In this document: one piece after another, positions 1,317 through 59,732 of the stretch
How positions within the stretch are numbered: the first letter of the stretch is position 1
How the letters are laid out: each line of letters begins with the position of its first letter
DNA from: Candidatus Parcubacteria bacterium
Lineage (GTDB): Bacteria; Patescibacteriota; Patescibacteriia; Patescibacteriales; UBA12075
Length of the DNA: 64,000 bases
Assembly: GCA_002869165.1 (NCBI GenBank)
Contig: PKTK01000001.1
Span: 510,005 to 574,004, forward strand
Direction: 5' to 3'
Notes under the pieces: generated by a model
Database searches by the model: none
What the model saw: only the letters and a program-made list of their open reading frames with translations
Told to the model about the DNA's origin: nothing
Program-made: the position numbers and the translations under genes

Positions 1317-2603
1317 TTACCTACCCCGCCACTGCTTATCCTGTCTAACTAATAATTCTTCAGCTCTTAATGGTTCGGCCATTAGTTCTAGAACTATTTT
1401 TTCCATTCTCATTCCTTGTGAACCTTTAACCAGCATAAGATCATTTTGCTTAATCCTATTTTGCAAGAATTTCCCAGCCTCTTCAGATTTATCAAAAGCA
1501 AATACATCCTCTTCTCTCATGCCATTCTCTTTGGCGCTTCTAGCTATATCCTTTGCCCTTTCACCAACTACTACCAATTTATCAATCTTGCTTTTAGCAA
1601 CGTACTCACCAACTTGCCTATGACTATCAACACTAACAGGACCTAGTTCAAGCATATCTCCAAGCACTGCATACTTTTTTGCTCCTTCATCTATTTTGGC
1701 AATTTTCAATGCGCTAACTGCCAACAAAGCTGATTTTGGCTCAGAATTATAAGTATCATCAATAATACTAGTGTGCTTGATACCTTCTACAACATTGAGT
1801 CTTCCCACAGGAGATTTGTAATCTCGCAGATATTCACATACCTTGTCCAAATTCACGTTATAAATAATACCCACACAAATTGCCGCCAAACTTGAATATA
1901 CTGCACCCAAACCTATCACATTGGGTAATTCCACTCTATGTCTAGCTCCTAGATATTTAAGCTCATAGCCAACACCTTTTAATTTATTTTCCTTGTCGTA
2001 GTTAAAATGGATATTTCTAGCGCTCACTACAGAATTTTCACTTAGTCCAAAAGAAATAACTCTAGCCTCTTATTTTTCTGCCATTTTCTTTGTCCCTTCA
2101 TCGTCAAAATTTATAATTGCATAACCTGCTTTTTCAATTGAAGAAATTAACTTACCTTTCTCAGCTTGTAGTGCTTCCCTGTTTTTAAAATGCTCGAGAT
2201 GAACCGAACCAACCAATGTAGCAACACCAATAATAGGTTTGGCGATTTCTGTTAAATAATCCATATCTCCTGGTTTATCTATCCCCATTTCCAGTATCAA
2301 TATTTCAGGATAATTTTTATCTTCTACTATCAAAAGCCAAAGAACTTTAAAACCGATAATAATCCAACCGAAAATATTTTTACCTGGAGAATAAGAGCCA
2401 ATTATTGTAAGTGGTAGACCAATTTCGTTATTATAATTTTTTTCTGACTGCCTAACGCGCTTCTCTTTTTTTAAAATACTATATATCGCCTCCTTAGTAC
2501 TAGTTTTACCAACCGAACCAGTAATAGCAATCACTGCTGGTTGATATTTTTTCAGTATCAGTTTAGCCCAATACCGAAGTTTTAATTCAATAAATTTTTT
2601 CAT
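1317..2603 (-). CDS. murF: UDP-N-acetylmuramoyl-tripeptide--D-alanyl-D-alanine ligase MurF; ORF-track pieces 2070-2603 and 1317-2027 lie in one frame across an in-frame TAA at 2070-2072
   Basis: Mur ligase P-loop ITGSVGKTSTKE in the N-terminal piece and the Mur ligase C-terminal domain (DDTYNSEPKSALLAV..., VLGDMLELG) in the other. The junction reads ...KKMAEK*EARVISFGLSENSVVSARNIHF. Confidence 0.8.
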
Positions 2604-3987: not shown

Positions 3988-4044
3988 TTCCCTGCAAAAT
4001 CATGTTAATTATTATAATATAATTCAAATTCATAATATTGTTTT

Positions 4045-4076
4045 GTGTATCTTTAAAGATATCTTTAAAGATACAC
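4045..4076. repeat. perfect 32-bp palindrome
   Basis: gtgtatctttaaagat|atctttaaagatacac, lying between convergent genes. Confidence 0.9.
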
Positions 4077-4090
4077 ATGGCAAACAATAG

Positions 4091-4139
4091 AAAAAACTAA
4101 CGATGAACATACCAATGAACATACTATGGTATGTTCATC
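4091..4139 (-). terminator. rho-independent terminator candidate for 4178-6049
   Basis: 12-bp stem gatgaacatacc/ggtatgttcatc. On the minus strand it is followed by a T-run (aaaaaac on plus). Confidence 0.65.
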
Positions 4140-4177
4140 ATTTATAACTATGATGAATAAAAAAACTAAATCAATTA

Positions 4178-6049
4178 TTATTCCATCTTCCCTTCACTCT
4201 TTGGATTATAACCATTAGCAACTTCCACTCCATCACCATATCCATCACCATCTGTATCTGGATTATTTTTGTCTGTACCTAATTCATCTTCTCGTTCATC
4301 TATCAATAAGTCACCATCAGTATCAGTTCCTCTAGTAGCGCCTGAATATGTAATAGCCTGCATAATATTCCAGTCATCGGTTGAACTTGGATTATAGCCA
4401 TAAATTGCTCTAAATGTTTTAATTCCTTGAGTTTCTGAGTCTAAGTTTCTATTCTCTGCTTTTTGCCTTAGTCCATAAGCCATAACTGTAACTGCAGCGT
4501 TATCGCTAGCTACATTCATATCAGCAATTCTTTTGTATATTTTTTGGAATTGTTCCTTGGCCCTCTTTTCAGCTTCTTCGTTTGTTATACTTGGCCATCT
4601 ACCATTAGCTATTTTAATAGCATCAGCTAATTCTTCTTCATTTTCAGGCAACTTATCAAAGGCTGATTTATACGAATATATTACAGCTGCTCTTTCGCAC
4701 TCACCTAATTGCTTGGTATTCTCATCTACTCCGTAAGTAATAAAGTTGTTAAGTGCGTTCTGCATATTCTCTGACACTTCATTTGTGTCCTTTGTCAGGT
4801 TTGATAAATACTTAATTCTAGCTTCTTGTTCACGAGTTTCGTCTTGTGACTCATGCAATTCTAAAAGAATTTCATCAAGCTTTTGAGAGTGGAGACGAGA
4901 TGCACTTAACTCAATGTCAATAATATCCTGAGTTTTTTTACATACTCCCTCACTGCAACCATCTACACATTTTATTAAGCTAAATATCTCGTCCGAGCCA
5001 GTATATTCATCAATATCATTAATATTACAAGACCCCTCTAACACATAGCAATCTTCACCTTCACAAGTATTGCTGCCCGTCTCACCAAATATTTCTTTAT
5101 AGCTTGTATAAAACTTTCCATCTTTTTCAAAACTATATCCACCCGAACTATTTTTTCCTGAAAACACACATACATCATTGTAATGCCTCAAATTATTGTC
5201 AAAATTAATAGTAACTCTACCAAATTTATATACATTAGTTCCTTTATCACTGTCCACACATTCTGATTCACCGTTTATTGCTTCAAAATCCTTTATTTCA
5301 CTATCGGCGTCTTGAATACATTCACCCATGTTGCAACCATATGCACAATGCCAATATTTACTGCGTGGTATATTATTGTCGCAAACTGTTTCCTTTACTA
5401 GACAATTAATTCCATAACACTTGTCGACAAGCTCTTTTATTACTCCATCCTCACTGAGCGCACAAGCATCATTATACTCCCTCTCTCCCATTAGCACTAC
5501 TCCATATTCATCATAATTTAAGCCATTATCAGAATCGCTGCACACTGGAACAGAAAGTGGCTCTCCATCTCCTATCTTCACTTGCATTTTATATGTGTTA
5601 TTTTCCTCATTTAACTCCTCTATTGTATTGCTTTTAGCCTCATTAATAATATTGTTATCTACTCGAAAAGTAAAAGTTTCATCGATGCTTGAATCATTTG
5701 AAAAAATATAAGATCCGGATAAAGTAACTGTATATAATTTATCCTTTTCCATGCTCACCCCTGAGTTTTCAACATAAAAACTTGAACAACTTTTAAATCC
5801 TCCCCAATACTCTGCTGTTGGTTCAGTTGTCACGCAAACTGAAAAATCACTATCCACAGAGATTTCAGATAAATTTTTTATATATACCTTAAAATATAAT
5901 GATTGTTTATCAGAAAAAGAAGAATCTTCCAGAATTTTTTCTACATTATCAATGGTTAAATCAGGAAGACTTTCAGTTGACTGAGCCTGAACTCCTACAC
6001 ATAAAAATATTGCAAAAAAGATACTTGATACCAACATCCTTATTTTCAT
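4178..6049 (-). CDS. secreted Cys-rich repeat protein with C-terminal calcium-binding (thrombospondin type 3-like DxDxDG) repeats
   Basis: Signal peptide MKIRMLVSSIFFAIFLCVGVQA. Two internal Cys-rich modules (CSDSDNGLNY..., CVDSDKGTNVY...). C-terminus DTDGDLLIDERE...DTDGDGYGDGVEVANGYNP. Confidence 0.6.
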   Translation of the reverse strand: MKIRMLVSSIFFAIFLCVGVQAQSTESLPDLTIDNVEKILEDSSFSDKQSLYFKVYIKNLSEISVDSDFSVCVTTEPTAEYWGGFKSCSSFYVENSGVSMEKDKLYTVTLSGSYIFSNDSSIDETFTFRVDNNIINEAKSNTIEELNEENNTYKMQVKIGDGEPLSVPVCSDSDNGLNYDEYGVVLMGEREYNDACALSEDGVIKELVDKCYGINCLVKETVCDNNIPRSKYWHCAYGCNMGECIQDADSEIKDFEAINGESECVDSDKGTNVYKFGRVTINFDNNLRHYNDVCVFSGKNSSGGYSFEKDGKFYTSYKEIFGETGSNTCEGEDCYVLEGSCNINDIDEYTGSDEIFSLIKCVDGCSEGVCKKTQDIIDIELSASRLHSQKLDEILLELHESQDETREQEARIKYLSNLTKDTNEVSENMQNALNNFITYGVDENTKQLGECERAAVIYSYKSAFDKLPENEEELADAIKIANGRWPSITNEEAEKRAKEQFQKIYKRIADMNVASDNAAVTVMAYGLRQKAENRNLDSETQGIKTFRAIYGYNPSSTDDWNIMQAITYSGATRGTDTDGDLLIDEREDELGTDKNNPDTDGDGYGDGVEVANGYNPKSEGKME

Positions 6050-29720: not shown

Positions 29721-29728
29721 ATTTAAAT

Positions 29729-29800
29729 CACATAACACATATCACACATCACATAGCAATCAACCAATAATGTTATGTGCTATGTCTTATGTGATATGTG
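29729..29800. repeat. two inverted heptamer arrays (CACATAA-like x4 / TGNTATG x4) forming a hairpin
   Basis: cacataa cacatat cacacat cacatag ... tgttatg tgctatg tcttatg tgatatg. Confidence 0.75.
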
Positions 29801-29805
29801 AAAAA

Positions 29806-34245: not shown

Positions 34246-34356
34246 ACAATTTGTTTAGCTCCATTATTAACACAACATAAGTTAATGGCATAAAGTTTAT
34301 AAAGGTTATTACATAATAACGCTTCTCTTTACAAACTTTTCACTTTTAACTTAAAA

Positions 34357-34398
34357 ACCTAAAAGCTAATAGCTAAAAGCTAGAAGCTAGAAGCTAAA
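34357..34398. repeat. heptamer micro-array (AGCTARA x6) ending 6 nt before the rplK ATG
   Basis: acctaaa agctaat agctaaa agctaga agctaga agctaaa. Confidence 0.85.
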
Positions 34399-34404
34399 AA
34401 ATAT

Positions 34405-37235: not shown

Positions 37236-37264
37236 TTATTATTTCACGTCCTGCTTATCACTCT

Positions 37265-37299
37265 GATATGTGATATGTGATACGTGATACATGAAATAT
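37265..37299. repeat. heptamer micro-array (GATAYGT x5) running into the next start codon
   Basis: gatatgt gatatgt gatacgt gatacat gaaatAT(G). Confidence 0.8.
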
Positions 37300-37846
37300 G
37301 ATATTAGGCATAAAAGAACTACATAAATTAGTCAAAGAAAAAAACTTGGTAGAAAATCTATGCGCGAGAGAAAAAGAAAATCCAGAAGGAGCTGGCTTTG
37401 ACTTACGTCTAGCAGAAGTTTATGAACTCGAGGGTTCTGGCTTTTTGGGTGTTGAAAATCGAGATACTCCAAAGTCTAGTCTTGTAGCCAAGGATGATCC
37501 AAGTAAATCAGAAGAAGAAAACAGTTTTATTTTTAAACCTGGTGAATATTACCTGGTAAAAACCATGGAGAAGGTAAATCTACCAACTACCTTATCAGGA
37601 ATAATATTCCCTCGCACTACCCTGTTCCGCTCAGGCTTAGTTCTGGCTAATGGTATTGTACAACCAGGCTATTCTGGAGAGCTTACTTTTGGTATCTGTA
37701 ATATGAGCAAATCCAATATCAAAGTATCGTTTGGTGCTCGTGTGGTTCACATCACTTTCCAAGAAGTACTCGGCGAAGGAAATCAATACCGTGGTCAATG
37801 GCAAGGCGGAAGGGTGAGTACTGAGGGAGAAGAAGTTCAAATATAA
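37298..37846 (+). CDS. dCTP deaminase/dUTPase-superfamily protein (Dcd-like)
   Basis: 182 aa; GFDLRLAEVYEL, VQPGYSGELTFGICNMS. This is the pattern of the trimeric dUTPase/Dcd fold. Confidence 0.65.
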   Translation: MILGIKELHKLVKEKNLVENLCAREKENPEGAGFDLRLAEVYELEGSGFLGVENRDTPKSSLVAKDDPSKSEEENSFIFKPGEYYLVKTMEKVNLPTTLSGIIFPRTTLFRSGLVLANGIVQPGYSGELTFGICNMSKSNIKVSFGARVVHITFQEVLGEGNQYRGQWQGGRVSTEGEEVQI

Positions 37847-39379: not shown

Positions 39380-39453
39380 ATAACACCCCTCACCATAAAT
39401 AGTCCCCTCACCTCTGTACATTATGATAGTATTGTCACCACAAATATACAATT

Positions 39454-39611
39454 TGTCATCCTGGGGCTTTCACTGAAGTATGTTTTTTACAAAGTAAAAA
39501 ACTAAGAAAGATGAAAGAACCCGGGATCCATCAACGTTCTAGGTAAGTATAACGTTATCATCAATGAACACGTTCCTGGATCCCGGATCGCCTTCGGCGT
39601 ACAGGATGACA
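39454..39611. repeat. MITE-like element, TGTCATCCTGGG subfamily (158 bp)
   Basis: tgtcatcctggggc...gcgtacaggatgaca; inner inverted repeat cccgggatcca/tggatcccgg. Confidence 0.7.
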
Positions 39612-39662
39612 AAAGCGGTAATAACATTTGACAAATACACACCTCAAAGGGGAATTAAATAT

Positions 39663-40214: not shown

Positions 40215-40219
40215 TTAGT

Positions 40220-40327
40220 TGTCATCCTGGGACTAAAGCGTTGTTGAAGAACTCGCGATCCAGAAAACGTTATAACACAATGGATCCCGGGTTCTCCTTC
40301 GCTCCGCTCCGGAGCCCCAGGATGACA
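40220..40327. repeat. MITE-like element, TGTCATCCTGGG subfamily (108 bp)
   Basis: tgtcatcctgggac...ggagccccaggatgaca; shares the ggatcccggg core with 39454-39611. Confidence 0.7.
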
Positions 40328-40338
40328 AAAATAAAACA

Positions 40339-41492: not shown

Positions 41493-42998
41493 ATGGAATA
41501 CGATGTAATTATCGGCTTGGAAATACATGCTGAACTCAAAACCAAATCAAAAATGTTTTGCGAATGTGATAACAATCCGGAGGGTAAAAAACCAAATGAA
41601 AATACCTGTCCAATTTGTCTTGGACATCCTGGTTGTTTGCCTATTCCAAACAAACAAGCAATAGAATGGACAGTTTTAACTGGTCTGGCACTACATTGTA
41701 AGGTTAATAAATTATCAAAATTTGATAGAAAAAATTACTTCTATCATGATCTACCAAAAGCATATCAGATTTCTCAGTATGACTTGCCTTTTGTGTATGA
41801 TGGCTATATGCAGGTTGATGATACACGGGTTGCTATTACTCGGATTCACCTAGAAGAAGATACTGGCAAAAACACTCATCCAGCTGGCAAGAACTATTCA
41901 TTGATTGATTTCAATAGATCATCAACTCCTCTCATGGAAATGGTAACTGAGCCAACTATAAAATCAGCAGAACAAGCTAAAAAATTCTGTCAACAATACC
42001 AACAAATCTTAAGATACTTGGATATCTCTAATGCTGATATGGAAAAAGGAGAAATGAGATGTGAGGCAAATATCTCAGTGCAAGAGAAAGGTAAATGGGA
42101 ATACTTGGGAAATTGTGAAATCAAGCCAATCGGAGATTATAAACTAAGTCCAAAAGTTGAAGTCAAAAACATCAACTCTTTTAAAGCCGTGGAAAAGGCT
42201 ATCAACTTCGAAATCAAAAGACAAATTGAAGCTCTAGAAGATGGTGAAAAGCTTGTACAGGAAACTCGTGGTTGGGACGAAAACAAAGCAGTAACAGTAA
42301 GCCAAAGAACCAAAGAAACTTCAGCTGACTATAGATACTTTCCTGAACCAGATATTCCTCCAATCAAATTTGAAGCTAGCGAAATTGAAGCTATCAAAGC
42401 CAAACTAACTGAAATGCCACCAGAGAAAAAAGTACGCTTCATAGAGCAATATGACTTTGACGCTGATACTGCTGAGATACTTGTAGCCGACAAGCAAATT
42501 GCTAACTTTGCCGAAAACACAATCTCTGAACTAAGAGCCTGGATTGATTCAAATGGTGATGACTGGGAAAGACAAAAGAAAAAACTTGCCAAAACAGCAT
42601 CCAACTGGCTAACTTCTGAACTATTTAAATATATCAAAGCAGATGGTATGGAAGTAATCAAGAAAATCACGCCAGAAAATTTTGCTGAACTAATCACGCT
42701 AATATATCAAGGCAAGATTAACTCAAGCGCTGGCCAGACAGTACTTGAAAAAATGGCCACTGACGGAGGAGATCCTAGCAATATCGTAGAAGAACTCGGC
42801 CTTGAGCAAATCGATGACGAAGCTGAACTGGAAAAAACCATTCAAAATATTCTAGACCAAAACGCTTCTCAAGTCGAAGAATACAAAAGCGGAAAAGAAA
42901 ACGTTATCCAATTCTTTGTTGGTCAAACCATGTCAGCCACGAAAGGAAAGGCTAACCCTAAAAAAGTAATAGAAATACTAAAAAAACTATTATCATAA
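41493..42998 (+). CDS. gatB: Asp/Glu-tRNA amidotransferase subunit B
   Basis: 501 aa; MEYDVIIGLEIHAELKTKSKMFC, CPICLGHPG, RIHLEEDTGK, and a C-terminal GatB/YqeY domain. Confidence 0.9.
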   Translation: MEYDVIIGLEIHAELKTKSKMFCECDNNPEGKKPNENTCPICLGHPGCLPIPNKQAIEWTVLTGLALHCKVNKLSKFDRKNYFYHDLPKAYQISQYDLPFVYDGYMQVDDTRVAITRIHLEEDTGKNTHPAGKNYSLIDFNRSSTPLMEMVTEPTIKSAEQAKKFCQQYQQILRYLDISNADMEKGEMRCEANISVQEKGKWEYLGNCEIKPIGDYKLSPKVEVKNINSFKAVEKAINFEIKRQIEALEDGEKLVQETRGWDENKAVTVSQRTKETSADYRYFPEPDIPPIKFEASEIEAIKAKLTEMPPEKKVRFIEQYDFDADTAEILVADKQIANFAENTISELRAWIDSNGDDWERQKKKLAKTASNWLTSELFKYIKADGMEVIKKITPENFAELITLIYQGKINSSAGQTVLEKMATDGGDPSNIVEELGLEQIDDEAELEKTIQNILDQNASQVEEYKSGKENVIQFFVGQTMSATKGKANPKKVIEILKKLLS

Positions 42999-43183
42999 AT
43001 CTCTTCGATCGATCCTTTAGGGTTAGCCACAAAAGGAAAGGCTAATCCTAAAAAAGTGATAGAAATACTAAAAAAACAAATGTCGTAAATCTCTTCGATC
43101 GATCCTTTAGGGTCAGCCACAAAAGGAAAGGCTAATCCTAAAAAAGTGATAGAAATACTAAAAAAACTAATGTCTTAAATCTC
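42935..43183. repeat. 90-bp tandem repeat (~2.75 copies) duplicating the last 20 codons plus stop of gatB and 27 nt of downstream sequence
   Basis: agccacgaaaggaaaggctaaccc... starts at 42935, 43025 and 43115. Each copy ends ...EILKK(LL/QM/LM)S-TAA. Confidence 0.9.
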
Positions 43184-43196
43184 AATAAATTTAAAT

Positions 43197-43230
43197 AAAA
43201 AAAGAGACTAATAAGCCAGTCTCTTTTTTA
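43197..43230. terminator. bidirectional terminator between gatB and 43240-43632
   Basis: agagact-aataagcc-agtctct flanked by aaaaaa and ttttt. Confidence 0.75.
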
Positions 43231-43239
43231 TATTTTAAT

Positions 43240-43632
43240 TTATTTTGCAACTAGAAAAACAACTATTAGCGCTCCTATCCCAACAATAAGTAATACACTA
43301 CTAATTATCGCTGACTTCTTTTTCAATTCAATCTCTTTTTCAGTAAGCGGTCTTATCTTGTCTTGATTTTTCTTTTCCATACCAGCACCAATTGCTACCC
43401 CTATAGCAATACCAATTGCAGGTCCCACTCCCATATTTCCAGTAGCCACACCCACAGCAACGCCAATTGGTAAACCAATAGCTATTCCCTGTCCCATAAA
43501 ATGCCCTTTGGGATGTTTACCAGTTTTTTTAAACTCTTCTCTATGAAGTTTAAAAACTGACCTCATCACAATAAGTAAAATTATTGCGATAATAGCAAAG
43601 ATAAACATCATGCTTAAATATTCTGTCGGCAT
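43240..43632 (-). CDS. membrane protein with a glycine-zipper segment
   Basis: 130 aa; TM helices at both ends and central GIAIGLPIGVAVGVATGNMGVGPAIGIAIGVAIGAG. Confidence 0.5.
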   Translation of the reverse strand: MPTEYLSMMFIFAIIAIILLIVMRSVFKLHREEFKKTGKHPKGHFMGQGIAIGLPIGVAVGVATGNMGVGPAIGIAIGVAIGAGMEKKNQDKIRPLTEKEIELKKKSAIISSVLLIVGIGALIVVFLVAK

Positions 43633-50233: not shown

Positions 50234-50275
50234 ATTCTTAATTCTTAATTCTTAATTCTTAATTCTTAATTCTTA
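50234..50275. repeat. heptamer array (ATTCTTA x6)
   Basis: Six perfect ATTCTTA units. Confidence 0.95.
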
Positions 50276-50285
50276 ATTACAGACA

Positions 50286-54999: not shown

Positions 55000-55027
55000 A
55001 TTCTTAATTCTTAATTCTTAATTCTTA
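55000..55027. repeat. heptamer array (ATTCTTA x4)
   Basis: Four perfect ATTCTTA units. Confidence 0.9.
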
Positions 55028-55030
55028 AAA

Positions 55031-57713: not shown

Positions 57714-59732
57714 ATGGCTAAAAAAGAAGAAAAAAAAGTAATAAAGAAAAAATCAGACTACGGCGCTGAGGCGATTACAGTTTTGGAGGGACTGGATCCA
57801 GTAAGAAAAAGACCAGGTATGTACATTGGCTCAACAGCTAGCTCTGGACTACATCATTTAATCTGGGAAGTAGTAGATAACGGCTTTGATGAAGCTATGG
57901 CTGGACACGCTGATACTGTCACTATTACCCTACAAGAGGATGGCATGGTTCGAGTAGAGGATAATGGGCGTGGTATCCCAGTTGACAAACACAAAGTAAC
58001 TGGTGTATCTGCACTTGAAACAGTTTTAACCAAACTTCACGCTGGTGGTAAATTTGGTGGCGAAGGATCAGGCTACAAAGTATCTGGTGGTCTTCACGGT
58101 GTTGGTGTATCAGTAGTAAATGCTCTATCAAAACACTTAAAAGCCGAAGTACACCGAGATGGTAAAATCTGGACCCAGGAATACAAAATTGGCAAACCAA
58201 AAGGAAAAATCAAATCAGCTGGCACCACCAAAAAAACTGGAACTGTTATCACCTTTTTGCCAGATGACAGTATTTTTACTGAAACCGAATTCAAATGGGG
58301 CACCATTCTAGACCATCTAAGAAGACAAGCATATCTAACCAAGGGAGTAACTGTTAATATTCACGACCGCAGAAAAGAACATAGCCAAAAAGATTATTCA
58401 TTTTATTTCGAAGGTGGTGTTCTTTCTTACATCAAAAATTTAAACTTAAATAAAACTGTAAAAAACCCAACTATTTTCTATGTTGAAAAAGAAATTGAGA
58501 ACTCAAAGATTGAAATAGCACTCCAATACAACGATGAGTACAATGAAACTGTTCTACCTTTTGCCAATAATATCCCAAATCCAGAAGGTGGTACCCACCT
58601 AGTTGGCTTTAGAACTGCTCTAACAAGAACTCTCAATTCATATGCTAGAAATCAAAAGCTTCTCAAAGAAAAAGACGAAAACCTAGCCGGTGAAGATGTT
58701 CGAGAAGGCTTAACTGCAATTGTTTAAGTTAAGCTAACCGAACCACAATTTGAAGGGCAAACAAAAGGAAAACTGGGAAACGCTGAAGTAAAAACTCAAG
58801 TTGAACAAATATTCGGTGAATCTTTTGCAACGTTTTTAGAAGAACACCCCAAAGAAGCAGAAGCAATCATTGGTAAATGTATCGTAGCCTCTCAAGCTCG
58901 TATTGCTGCAAGAACTGCCAGAGCTTCTATTCTACGAAAAGGCGCTCTAGATGGTATTACTCTACCAGGTAAACTAGCTGACTGTTCTAGCCGAAAAGCC
59001 GAGGAGTCTGAAATATTTATCGTGGAGGGCGACTCCGCTGGAGGTTCTGCCAAACAAGGACGTGATAGAAAATTCCAGGCCATCCTACCCCTACGTGGTA
59101 AGATTCTAAACGTAGAAAGAGCTAGATTAGATAAAATGCTTGCCAATAACGAAATTAAAAATCTAGTAATTGCACTAGGTACAAACATCAATGATCAATT
59201 TGATATAGAAAAACTCAGATATCATAGAATCGTGATCATGACAGATGCTGATGTTGATGGTGCTCATATCAGAACCTTACTATTAACCCTTTTCTTTAGA
59301 CACTTTAATGAATTAGTGGCTGCTGGACATCTTTACATCGCCCAACCACCACTATATCAAGTCAAAAAAGGTGCCAAAGTAGAATACGCTTATTCTGAAG
59401 CTGAAAAAGAAAAAATTATTAAATCATTGGGTGGGCACGTAGATGAAGAAGTAAAAGAACTTGAAGAAGGTGAGGAAGAAAACGAAGAAGAAACAAAAAA
59501 GAAAGCCAACGCCAGAATCTCTATTCAGCGATATAAGGGTCTTGGTGAAATGAACCCTGAACAATTATGGGAGACAACTATGGATCCTGAACAACGTGTT
59601 ATGAGCCAAGTTACCATAGAAGATGCTGCTTATGCTGATAAAATATTTGATATGCTCATGGGTGGAGATGTTGCTCCAAGAAAACACTTCATTCAAACAC
59701 ATGCTAAGAAGGTTGAAAATCTTGATATATAA
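57714..59732 (+). CDS. gyrB: DNA gyrase subunit B; one frame throughout, with an in-frame TAA at 58725-58727 (ORF-track pieces 57714-58727 and 59022-59732)
   Basis: GHKL ATPase motifs ([23 protein letters not shown]), [12 protein letters not shown], Toprim [36 protein letters not shown], and C-terminus ...AKKVENLDI. Confidence 0.9.

Follow-up and report, generated by a model that had tools for sequence, protein, structure and literature searches.

In the genome of a Candidatus Parcubacteria bacterium, the gene gatB is followed by two further copies of its own 3' end, so that three gene ends, each with its own stop codon, stand in tandem. They lie within a stretch of 64,000 nucleotides (contig PKTK01000001.1, positions 510,005 to 574,004 of the forward strand), hereafter called the window and numbered from its first nucleotide. 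On balance, the structure is best regarded as a three-unit array, fixed in its species, that belongs to a family of gatB tail cassettes in Parcubacteria, retains a weakened form of the hairpin seen in that family, and has been changed by unequal homologous recombination. GatB is essential where Gln-tRNA and Asn-tRNA are made by transamidation, and its last helices are part of a YqeY-type tail domain that binds tRNA (in GatCAB). Arrays of gatB tails are not described in the literature as far as could be found, and the same is true of what they present: up to seven alternative ends of a core translation gene, with a spacer between them that is more conserved than synonymous sites. The family thus appears to be undescribed.

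The array is the strongest tandem repeat that Tandem Repeats Finder reports in the window (42932-43183, period 90 nt, 2.8 copies, 93% matches, no indels, score 441; the runner-up scores 90). Read in register, it resolves into three copies of 72 nt and, between them, two identical 18-nt fillers, TTCGATCGATCCTTTAGG. Every copy begins with GTCA, or GTTA in the case of copy 2, and continues with 20 codons, TAA, and ATCTC. An earlier note on this DNA, made from the sequence alone, had described a head-to-tail triplication of the gatB end, in frame and with a TAA for each copy, and both the repeat finder and the reading of the register bear this out. The array is real, but the copy starts given at the time (42935, 43025, and 43115) lie 3 nt inside the repeat boundary. 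The features of the locus are as follows.

41493-42998, plus strand: gatB coding sequence, 501 aa, ending with the copy 1 tail and TAA at 42996-42998 (list of open reading frames [ORFs], Pfam)
42932-43003, plus strand: unit 1, the working gatB end, with GTCA, the 20 codons ATKGKANPKKVIEILKKLLS, TAA, and ATCTC (repeat register)
43004-43021, plus strand: spacer 1, TTCGATCGATCCTTTAGG, following unit 1, with the motif GATCGATCC and a short weak hairpin, GATCC-TTTA-GGGTT (fits spacer model R1)
43022-43093, plus strand: unit 2, a silent copy with GTTA, ATKGKANPKKVIEILKKQMS, TAA, and ATCTC, without start codon or promoter
43094-43111, plus strand: spacer 2, following unit 2 and identical to spacer 1 (R1 match)
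43112-43183, plus strand: unit 3, a silent copy with GTCA, ATKGKANPKKVIEILKKLMS, TAA, and ATCTC, followed by native sequence and no spacer
43198-43229, both strands: bidirectional intrinsic terminator, common to gatB and the convergent gene at 43240-43632 (terminator scan)

Counted with their spacers, unit 1 runs from 42932 to 43021 and unit 2 from 43022 to 43111; unit 3 (43112-43183) is partial, at 72 nt. In sequence, the product is identical to P0001, an NCBI entry under the name GatB from a Candidatus Parcubacteria bacterium, and Pfam finds GatB_N at residues 5-298 and GatB_Yqey at residues 363-500, the latter match reaching the last position of the profile. The body of the gene reads …ACCATGTCA just ahead of the tails. 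The 20-codon tails have the part ATKGKANPKKVIEILKK in common and then end in LLS (copy 1), QMS (copy 2), or LMS (copy 3); their stop codons (42996-98, 43086-88, and 43176-78) all stand in the gatB frame, with no further stop between them. The closest pair is copies 2 and 3, as the earlier note had stated, with 3 substitutions against 8 between copies 1 and 2 and 6 between copies 1 and 3. Synonymous divergence (dS, by NG86) is about 0.4 between copy 1 and either of the others and about 0.08 between copies 2 and 3, values that are noisy over only 20 codons.

The window is AT-rich (34% GC), and it contains no further TTCGATCGATCCTTTAGG site at up to 3 mismatches (0.03 expected). The filler is absent after copy 3, where native downstream sequence follows directly; that sequence resembles the region 3' of the single tail in L086, the closest single-tail relative, whose tail also has the same amino acids as unit 1. 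The terminator at 43198-43229 (fold energy -14.9 kcal/mol, z = -5.25) is the sole terminator-like site after gatB, and a scan for terminators and promoters found neither within the array. Since, in addition, copies 2 and 3 have no start codon, they most likely lie in the 3' untranslated region (UTR) of gatB, transcribed and untranslated. An antisense ORF of 65 aa (42923-43120, minus strand) crosses the repeat and was annotated as a gene by JGI in L001. Most likely it arises only from the repeat itself, because lysine codons read as phenylalanine codons on the opposite strand.

A GatB that differs by one residue from that of the window was found in three other data sets. In the contigs from JGI 3300007102 and ENA ERZ794999, the array is identical base for base, and elsewhere 4 of 7506 positions differ from the window. 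The Logan contig breaks off inside copy 2, a usual effect of repeats on short-k assembly. The array is genuine and fixed in the species: three copies, and no other number, were seen in every assembly of the species that spans it (these being consensus assemblies). Since the array is the same in the other assemblies and 3 to 8 substitutions separate its copies, the triplication would be older than the split of the sampled strains.

The earlier note had suggested a comparison with the gatB 3' ends of related genomes, and this comparison, which took in 80 GTDB species representatives and a scan of metagenomes for the motif with the tail core after it, gave a single end in the nearest relatives and several in more distant ones. 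The four nearest relatives, with GatB about 80% identical, have one tail and then a terminator. At least ten more distant Parcubacteria lineages have 2-7 gatB ends, which share their boundary and repeat every 90-96 nt. Among the GTDB representatives, a second tail is present in L007 (period 96), L036 (period 92), and L044 (period 94), and L014 and L015 have a variant or degenerate form in which the second tail is truncated. The metagenome scan added nine more array contigs, drawn from six or more samples. Two of them that come from separate samples, L090 and L094, have seven tails each at a 95-nt period and are identical; L092 has four tails, L088 and L091 have three, and L089 and L093 have two. 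Weak matches in L013 and L050 were left out of use. In a neighbor joining tree of GatB, the array genomes are scattered among single-tail genomes in one large clade, and none is in the other clade.

A motif scan found the pattern absent from viral contigs. A tblastn match in phage phiKM1 (Komagataeibacter), considered as a phage attachment site (attP) derived from the gatB tail, lies on a fragment that adjoins tRNA-Ser and an integrase and is probably host flank; it was not used as a precedent. In L011, the site of an apparent second tail 2 kb downstream is the real gatB. L027 has a different kind of gatB-end duplication (4004-4495): 429 nt downstream lies a second version of the gene end, longer and degenerate, the two ends are separated by an ORF of 102 aa without Pfam match, and the GATCGATCC spacer is missing. 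Immediately upstream of gatB in L087, a single-tail close relative, is a gene for an IS200/IS605-type Y1 transposase (947-1324).

The arrays have a general form: one or more units, each made of a 20-21-codon tail, a stop, 2-8 nt, (T)TCGATCGATCC, and a GC hairpin, and then a last tail without spacer. Internal tails all start at one place, directly after …CA, with GCCACNAAAGG. As the last tail always lacks the spacer, this form fits the insertion of tail-plus-spacer units and not the duplication of the native 3' UTR. In L007, L036, and L044, the gap between the tails contains GATCGATCC and then a GC hairpin, as in the filler of the window. The last bases of the motif form part of the hairpin (TCCCGC…GCGGGA), in which the stems are constant and the loops variable. 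The stem has 8-9 bp in L044 and L088. The window retains only GATCC-TTTA-GGGTC, and its spacer (fold energy -3.2 kcal/mol) folds no better than shuffled sequence. The sole compensatory change seen is CCCGC/GCGGG versus CCCGA/TCGGG, in L091 and L014, and the same two carry a second spacer type with the same hairpin and a different boundary. RNAalifold on a MAFFT alignment of the spacers gave 2 pairs only, the 3' arm being misaligned; the hairpins are visible in single-sequence folds. All 18 Rfam matches in 42700-43400 are far below the gathering scores.

The spacer keeps close company with gatB. In about 0.55 Mb of fetched loci, the GATCGATCC 9-mer occurs almost only 7-14 nt past a gatB stop, and a model of spacer plus core (R1), applied to both strands of the window and 92 loci (609 kb), matches only after gatB tails, with none of the dispersed copies expected of repetitive extragenic palindromic (REP)-like sequences or miniature inverted-repeat transposable elements (MITEs). 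Within the window, the spacer motif occurs twice, both times in the array. Since the spacer is read in varying frames relative to the following tail, it would be a non-coding, nucleic-acid element, one that could serve as a recombination or mobility site or as a 3' structure in the RNA. A replication terminus or dif feature at the array is ruled out by the lack of a switch in GC skew at 43 kb.

The frame of the tails varies as well. Periods of 90, 92, 94, 95, and 96 nt (varying even within L092) put spare tails in all three frames, and the spacer of L088 carries an in-frame TGA, so that read-through, frameshifting, and matched-codon hopping cannot, to judge from the sequences compared, be the general mode of tail use. 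The in-frame period of the window matches the chance expectation of one in three. In L090 (275-907, minus strand; also in L094), most junctions read A-TGA, where an ATG overlaps the stop and opens an ORF of 33 codons into the next tail. The idea that the tails are independent small ORFs was rejected, since by eye this ATGA overlap of stop and start occurs only in the clade of L090 and L092 and is not always in the right frame.

Differences between tails fall mostly at third codon positions, as the counts at codon positions 1, 2, and 3 show for four pairs:

L036 second tail versus L093 second tail: 1, 2, 10
L090 tail 4 versus L092 tail 2: 2, 0, 11 (12 synonymous and 0 non-synonymous codon changes)
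Window copy 1 versus copy 2: 1, 1, 5
Window copy 1 versus copy 3: 1, 0, 5

Between L036 and L093, the gene bodies are about 78% identical and diverge in the manner of coding sequence, as do both tails; the spacers differ at about 3 of 29 positions, and homology breaks off precisely with the stop codon of tail 2. About 20 of the 24 non-first tails have an intact frame with the stop at the homologous place, and the ratio of non-synonymous to synonymous divergence (dN/dS) is about 0.1 or lower when non-first tails are compared across genomes. Some tails show decay: a frameshift in the last one of L092, truncation in L014, L015, and L091, and, in copy 2 of the window, a change of L to Q at a hydrophobic position. 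The coding-type divergence suggests that every tail has mostly been a working GatB end in its history, in place or elsewhere. The spacer, for its part, is probably under direct constraint at the level of nucleotides.

Some adjacent units are identical (tails 1 and 2 and tails 5 and 6 of L090, tails 1 and 2 of L088) or nearly so (copies 2 and 3 of the window), and such neighbors would show that units duplicate in place. One tail, GLLLELFKKLLT, takes fourth place in L090 and second place in L092. In the sequence downstream of its array, L095 agrees with L092 at 45-50 of 50 positions (90-100%), but its penultimate tail matches L090 tail 3 at 100% over 60 nt and the L092 tail at that position at only 29 of 50. 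The tail at the end of an array tends to be similar to the single tail of a sister genome, and both tail types are also found as the sole tail in relatives. From the shifted position of GLLLELFKKLLT and the tail shared by L095 and L090, it seems that array content turns over among relatives, each array remaining stable between samples.

The engine of these changes, we infer, is unequal homologous recombination, with the near-invariant 5' core that the tails share, GCCACNAAAGGNAARGCNAAYCC (23 nt, encoding ATKGKANP), as its anchor, within one genome and probably also between related genomes after the uptake of DNA. Recombination of this kind would duplicate units (copy 3 from copy 2 or the reverse), delete them, and join the gatB body to another tail irrespective of frame. 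A founding event would have inserted a unit of tail plus spacer between the body of the gene and the native tail.

Several points weigh against this reading. No recombination event was observed, and the arrays are not hypervariable, since samples agree exactly both in the window array and in the seven-tail one (L090 = L094). Nor does plain recombination account for the strong conservation of the spacers, internal ones included, or for the source of the first spacer. With the array absent from the four nearest relatives, either the lineage of the window gained it horizontally or the relatives all lost it. The hairpin of the window itself is weak, the evidence from L095 lies at a contig end and may come from a chimeric join, and estimates from 20 codons are noisy.

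Perhaps the arrays are instead the footprints of site-specific events, though this seems rather unlikely. Circular tail-plus-spacer cassettes might integrate, integron-like, at the junction of body and tail, or a tiny palindromic element (the spacer of 18-28 nt) might insert and duplicate about 65-72 nt of its target; in either case, the recombinase or transposase would be encoded elsewhere, and older tails would be buried as fossils. The form (tail-spacer)n-tail of all arrays would be expected, as would spacers, internal ones too, that are strongly conserved next to diverging tails. Last tails that are like sister single tails (L089 and L093 versus L046), the frameshifted last tail of L092, and the different positions of GLLLELFKKLLT in L090 and L092 also fit, the second spacer type in L014 and L091 suggests repeated events, and GC-rich palindromic mini-inserts are present elsewhere in these genomes. 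However, the Pfam matches of the neighboring genes include no recombinase adjoining the array in the window, and none consistently adjoins it in L089, L090, and L093. The spacer was not seen away from gatB in 609 kb, no larger element was found between tails save in the unrelated case of L027, and there were no matches in viral contigs. We know of no precedent for a target duplication of 65-72 nt other than the duplication of repeats in CRISPR (clustered regularly interspaced short palindromic repeats).

The systems that come to mind under such an explanation are like the gatB arrays in part. Integron arrays are ordered, promoter-less units with imperfect palindromes, the first unit being expressed and the content varying among relatives. 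In the gatB arrays, however, the units are fragments of one gene fused in register, the flanking ORFs do not include an integrase such as intI, and in place of a GTTRRRY core the boundaries fall between CA and GCCAC. Integrative elements that insert at conserved gene 3' ends carry a replacement end and leave a displaced duplicate (PMC7192596). There, too, a 3' end with its stop is duplicated, the displaced original lies downstream, and copies can be stacked, but only 27-32 nt lie between gatB copies (27 nt in the window), with no integrase, no cargo, no matches in viral contigs, and the same spacer in all lineages.

A similarly doubtful proposal is that the spare tails are a selected silent archive, from which recombination now and then exchanges roughly the last 12 GatB residues, as with pilS and vls or orphan toxin C-terminal modules, for example to escape an agent directed at this tail or at the DNA or RNA that encodes it. 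Silent partial-gene cassettes for gene conversion are found with pilE/pilS of Neisseria and vlsE of Borrelia, and orphan C-terminal modules are found downstream of cdiA and rhs. The arrangement is alike: an expressed gene, and then promoter-less 3' copies with a conserved anchor (copies 2 and 3 of the window share a 23-nt core) followed by divergence. The proposal is consistent with the intact frames of 20-21 codons and homologous stops of most non-first tails, with their low dN/dS across genomes, with homology between L036 and L093 that ends exactly at the tail 2 stop, and with the use of both tail types as sole tails in related single-tail genomes. On the other hand, the cassettes would be only about 65 nt long, no conversion or switching between samples was observed, and the target would be an essential cytoplasmic tRNA-dependent amidotransferase, a housekeeping enzyme; we know of no agent that attacks the GatB tail. 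The sole hints of a cassette reaching the expression site are the different array positions of GLLLELFKKLLT and the tail common to L095 and L090; a homology search with the C-terminal half of L092 GatB gave only distant partial proteins, which have no bearing on tail switching. Some tails are decaying (the frameshift in L092 tail 4, the truncations in L014, L015, and L091, the L-to-Q change in window copy 2), and the coding-type divergence could date from the time when each was the active tail.

It is tempting to go further and suppose that Parcubacteria keep a selected cassette system at the end of gatB, in which a GATC-rich hairpin element serves in the capture, storage, and exchange of alternative GatB C-terminal helices. 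The idea is speculative and on present evidence improbable. If true, it would be the first silent-cassette or integron-like diversification of a core translation enzyme, and it would imply an unknown antagonist (phage, host factor, or nuclease) of the GatB tail or its DNA or RNA. More generally, if the arrays are selected, there would be an unknown conflict or regulatory need centered on a core translation enzyme in candidate phyla radiation (CPR) bacteria. If they are footprints, there would be a new mechanism of insertion or duplication on a small scale.

Less probable by far is a recent replication slippage private to this genome, with TAA occasionally read through so as to add units of 30 residues to GatB; a recent slippage or duplication was what the earlier note had favored. 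The period of 90 nt equals 30 codons, no other stop intervenes, copies 2 and 3 differ at 3 positions, and the in-frame TAA codons of gyrB and a Mur ligase gene could mean that TAA is sometimes decoded. But the same spacer motif and left boundary recur in the arrays of at least ten other lineages. The event is not recent either, given an array that is fixed across assemblies (identical in two others, with 4 single-nucleotide differences in 7.5 kb) and has 3-8 substitutions between its copies. Nor is the junction that of a simple slip, which would not produce the 18-nt filler with its GATCGATCC motif and hairpin, a filler found between the gatB ends of many other Parcubacteria. Loci with variable numbers of tandem repeats, generated by slipped-strand mispairing or unequal crossing-over, are indeed also head-to-tail with neighbors often identical, and the gatB arrays do range from 2 to 7 copies across lineages. 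However, the unit of such loci is a contiguous piece of ancestral sequence, and the gatB units are interrupted by a conserved, foreign-looking filler that is absent after the last copy and in single-tail relatives. Furthermore, copy number does not vary between close strains in the consensus assemblies (3 in the species of the window, 7 in both L090 and L094), boundaries and spacer recur across lineages whose GatB is only about 65% identical, and the copies diverge in the manner of coding sequence.

Read-through of TAA, as a reason for the structure, fares no better. Related arrays occur in all three frames, where read-through would call for a fixed open frame: periods of 92, 94, and 95 nt place the spare tails out of frame, and an array that is in frame, that of L088, has TGA in its spacer. 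TAA is also the main stop codon of the window (32 of 48 long ORFs). Programmed bypassing of the T4 gene 60 type is no closer. A stop and a hairpin are present, but take-off and landing codons match only in L007 (GGA/GGA) and are mismatched in the window (copy 1 to copy 2, TCA versus TTA) and in L044 and L090. Occasional extensions of GatB by 30 residues may occur in this organism; if so, peptides would span ...KKLLS-x-ISSIDPLGLATK.

The remark in the earlier note on interrupted genes, which it had taken as a possible sign of read-through, has some basis, in that gyrB and the Mur ligase gene each have one in-frame TAA, but there is no sign of an extension of GatB. In gyrB (57714-59732), the TAA is at 58725-58727. 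The Pfam profile DNA_gyraseB is matched at its positions 1-105 before the codon and 107-171 after it, and the codon stands where, we take it, GyrB of E. coli and B. subtilis has a serine, a single change (TCA to TAA) being enough. The interruption could reflect a pseudogene, an error in the consensus, or decoding of TAA, and look-ups aimed at this codon in other assemblies gave no match. In the Mur ligase gene (1317-2603, minus strand), likewise of an essential type, the TAA is at 2070-2072, inside the Mur_ligase_M domain.

An assembly artefact, in which strain variants of the gatB end were concatenated, can be dismissed almost entirely: short-read metagenome assemblies can mis-join repeats, and the Logan contig does end inside copy 2, but three independent assemblies from different sources have the same three-copy structure, the copies are distinguishable, the 90-nt period is shorter than a read, no artefact would create the filler, and homologous arrays are present in many other assemblies.

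Two kinds of guide-encoding array might be confused with the gatB arrays, since CRISPR and tandem interspaced guide RNA (TIGR) arrays also alternate conserved, partly palindromic segments with variable ones and occur in CPR bacteria. TIGR arrays have dual-spacer units of 36 nt beside a Nop-domain Tas gene (PMC12045711). The gatB units, by contrast, are 90-96 nt long, the first lies within an ORF, and the neighbors of gatB have no Nop-type Pfam match; unlike CRISPR spacers, the variable segments are mutually homologous and all encode the same amphipathic tail. Nor do the differences between copies fit a diversity-generating retroelement, in which they would be limited to template adenines, since the changes seen are of the types G>A, C>T, A>G, and T>A, among others. 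In practice, the arrays can break short-read contigs, yield spurious antisense gene calls, and may pass for CRISPR-like arrays.

Other repeated elements were noted in passing. Two GC-rich palindromic elements of about 110-160 nt, at 39453-39612 and 40219-40328, flank the gene for an AAA_18 kinase in the window; they have 13-nt terminal inverted repeats (TTGTCATCCTGGG / CCCAGGATGACAA), and both copies are also present in L001-L003. The first is read into the 5' end of an ORF of 216 aa at 39564. In L092 (2100-2175, minus strand), an in-frame GC-rich palindromic insert, …PLRSPRIRFGEAGLSDSEASD…, lies inside gatB, in the N-terminal zinc-binding region, and similar short GC-rich in-frame inserts are found in GatB of other Parcubacteria (P0045, P0092, P0115, P0116, and P0119). 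Their presence in several GatB proteins suggests that small palindromic elements may be tolerated inside coding sequence.

The window also contains perfect tandem heptamers. ATTCTTA is repeated with 100% matches at 50234-50278 (6.4 copies) and, 4.7 kb away, at 55000-55028 (4.1 copies). Other heptamer arrays are those of ATCACAT at 29727-29755, facing TATGTGA at 29773-29801, of AAAAGCT at 34354-34399 (6.6 copies), and of TGATATG at 37264-37304 (5.9 copies).

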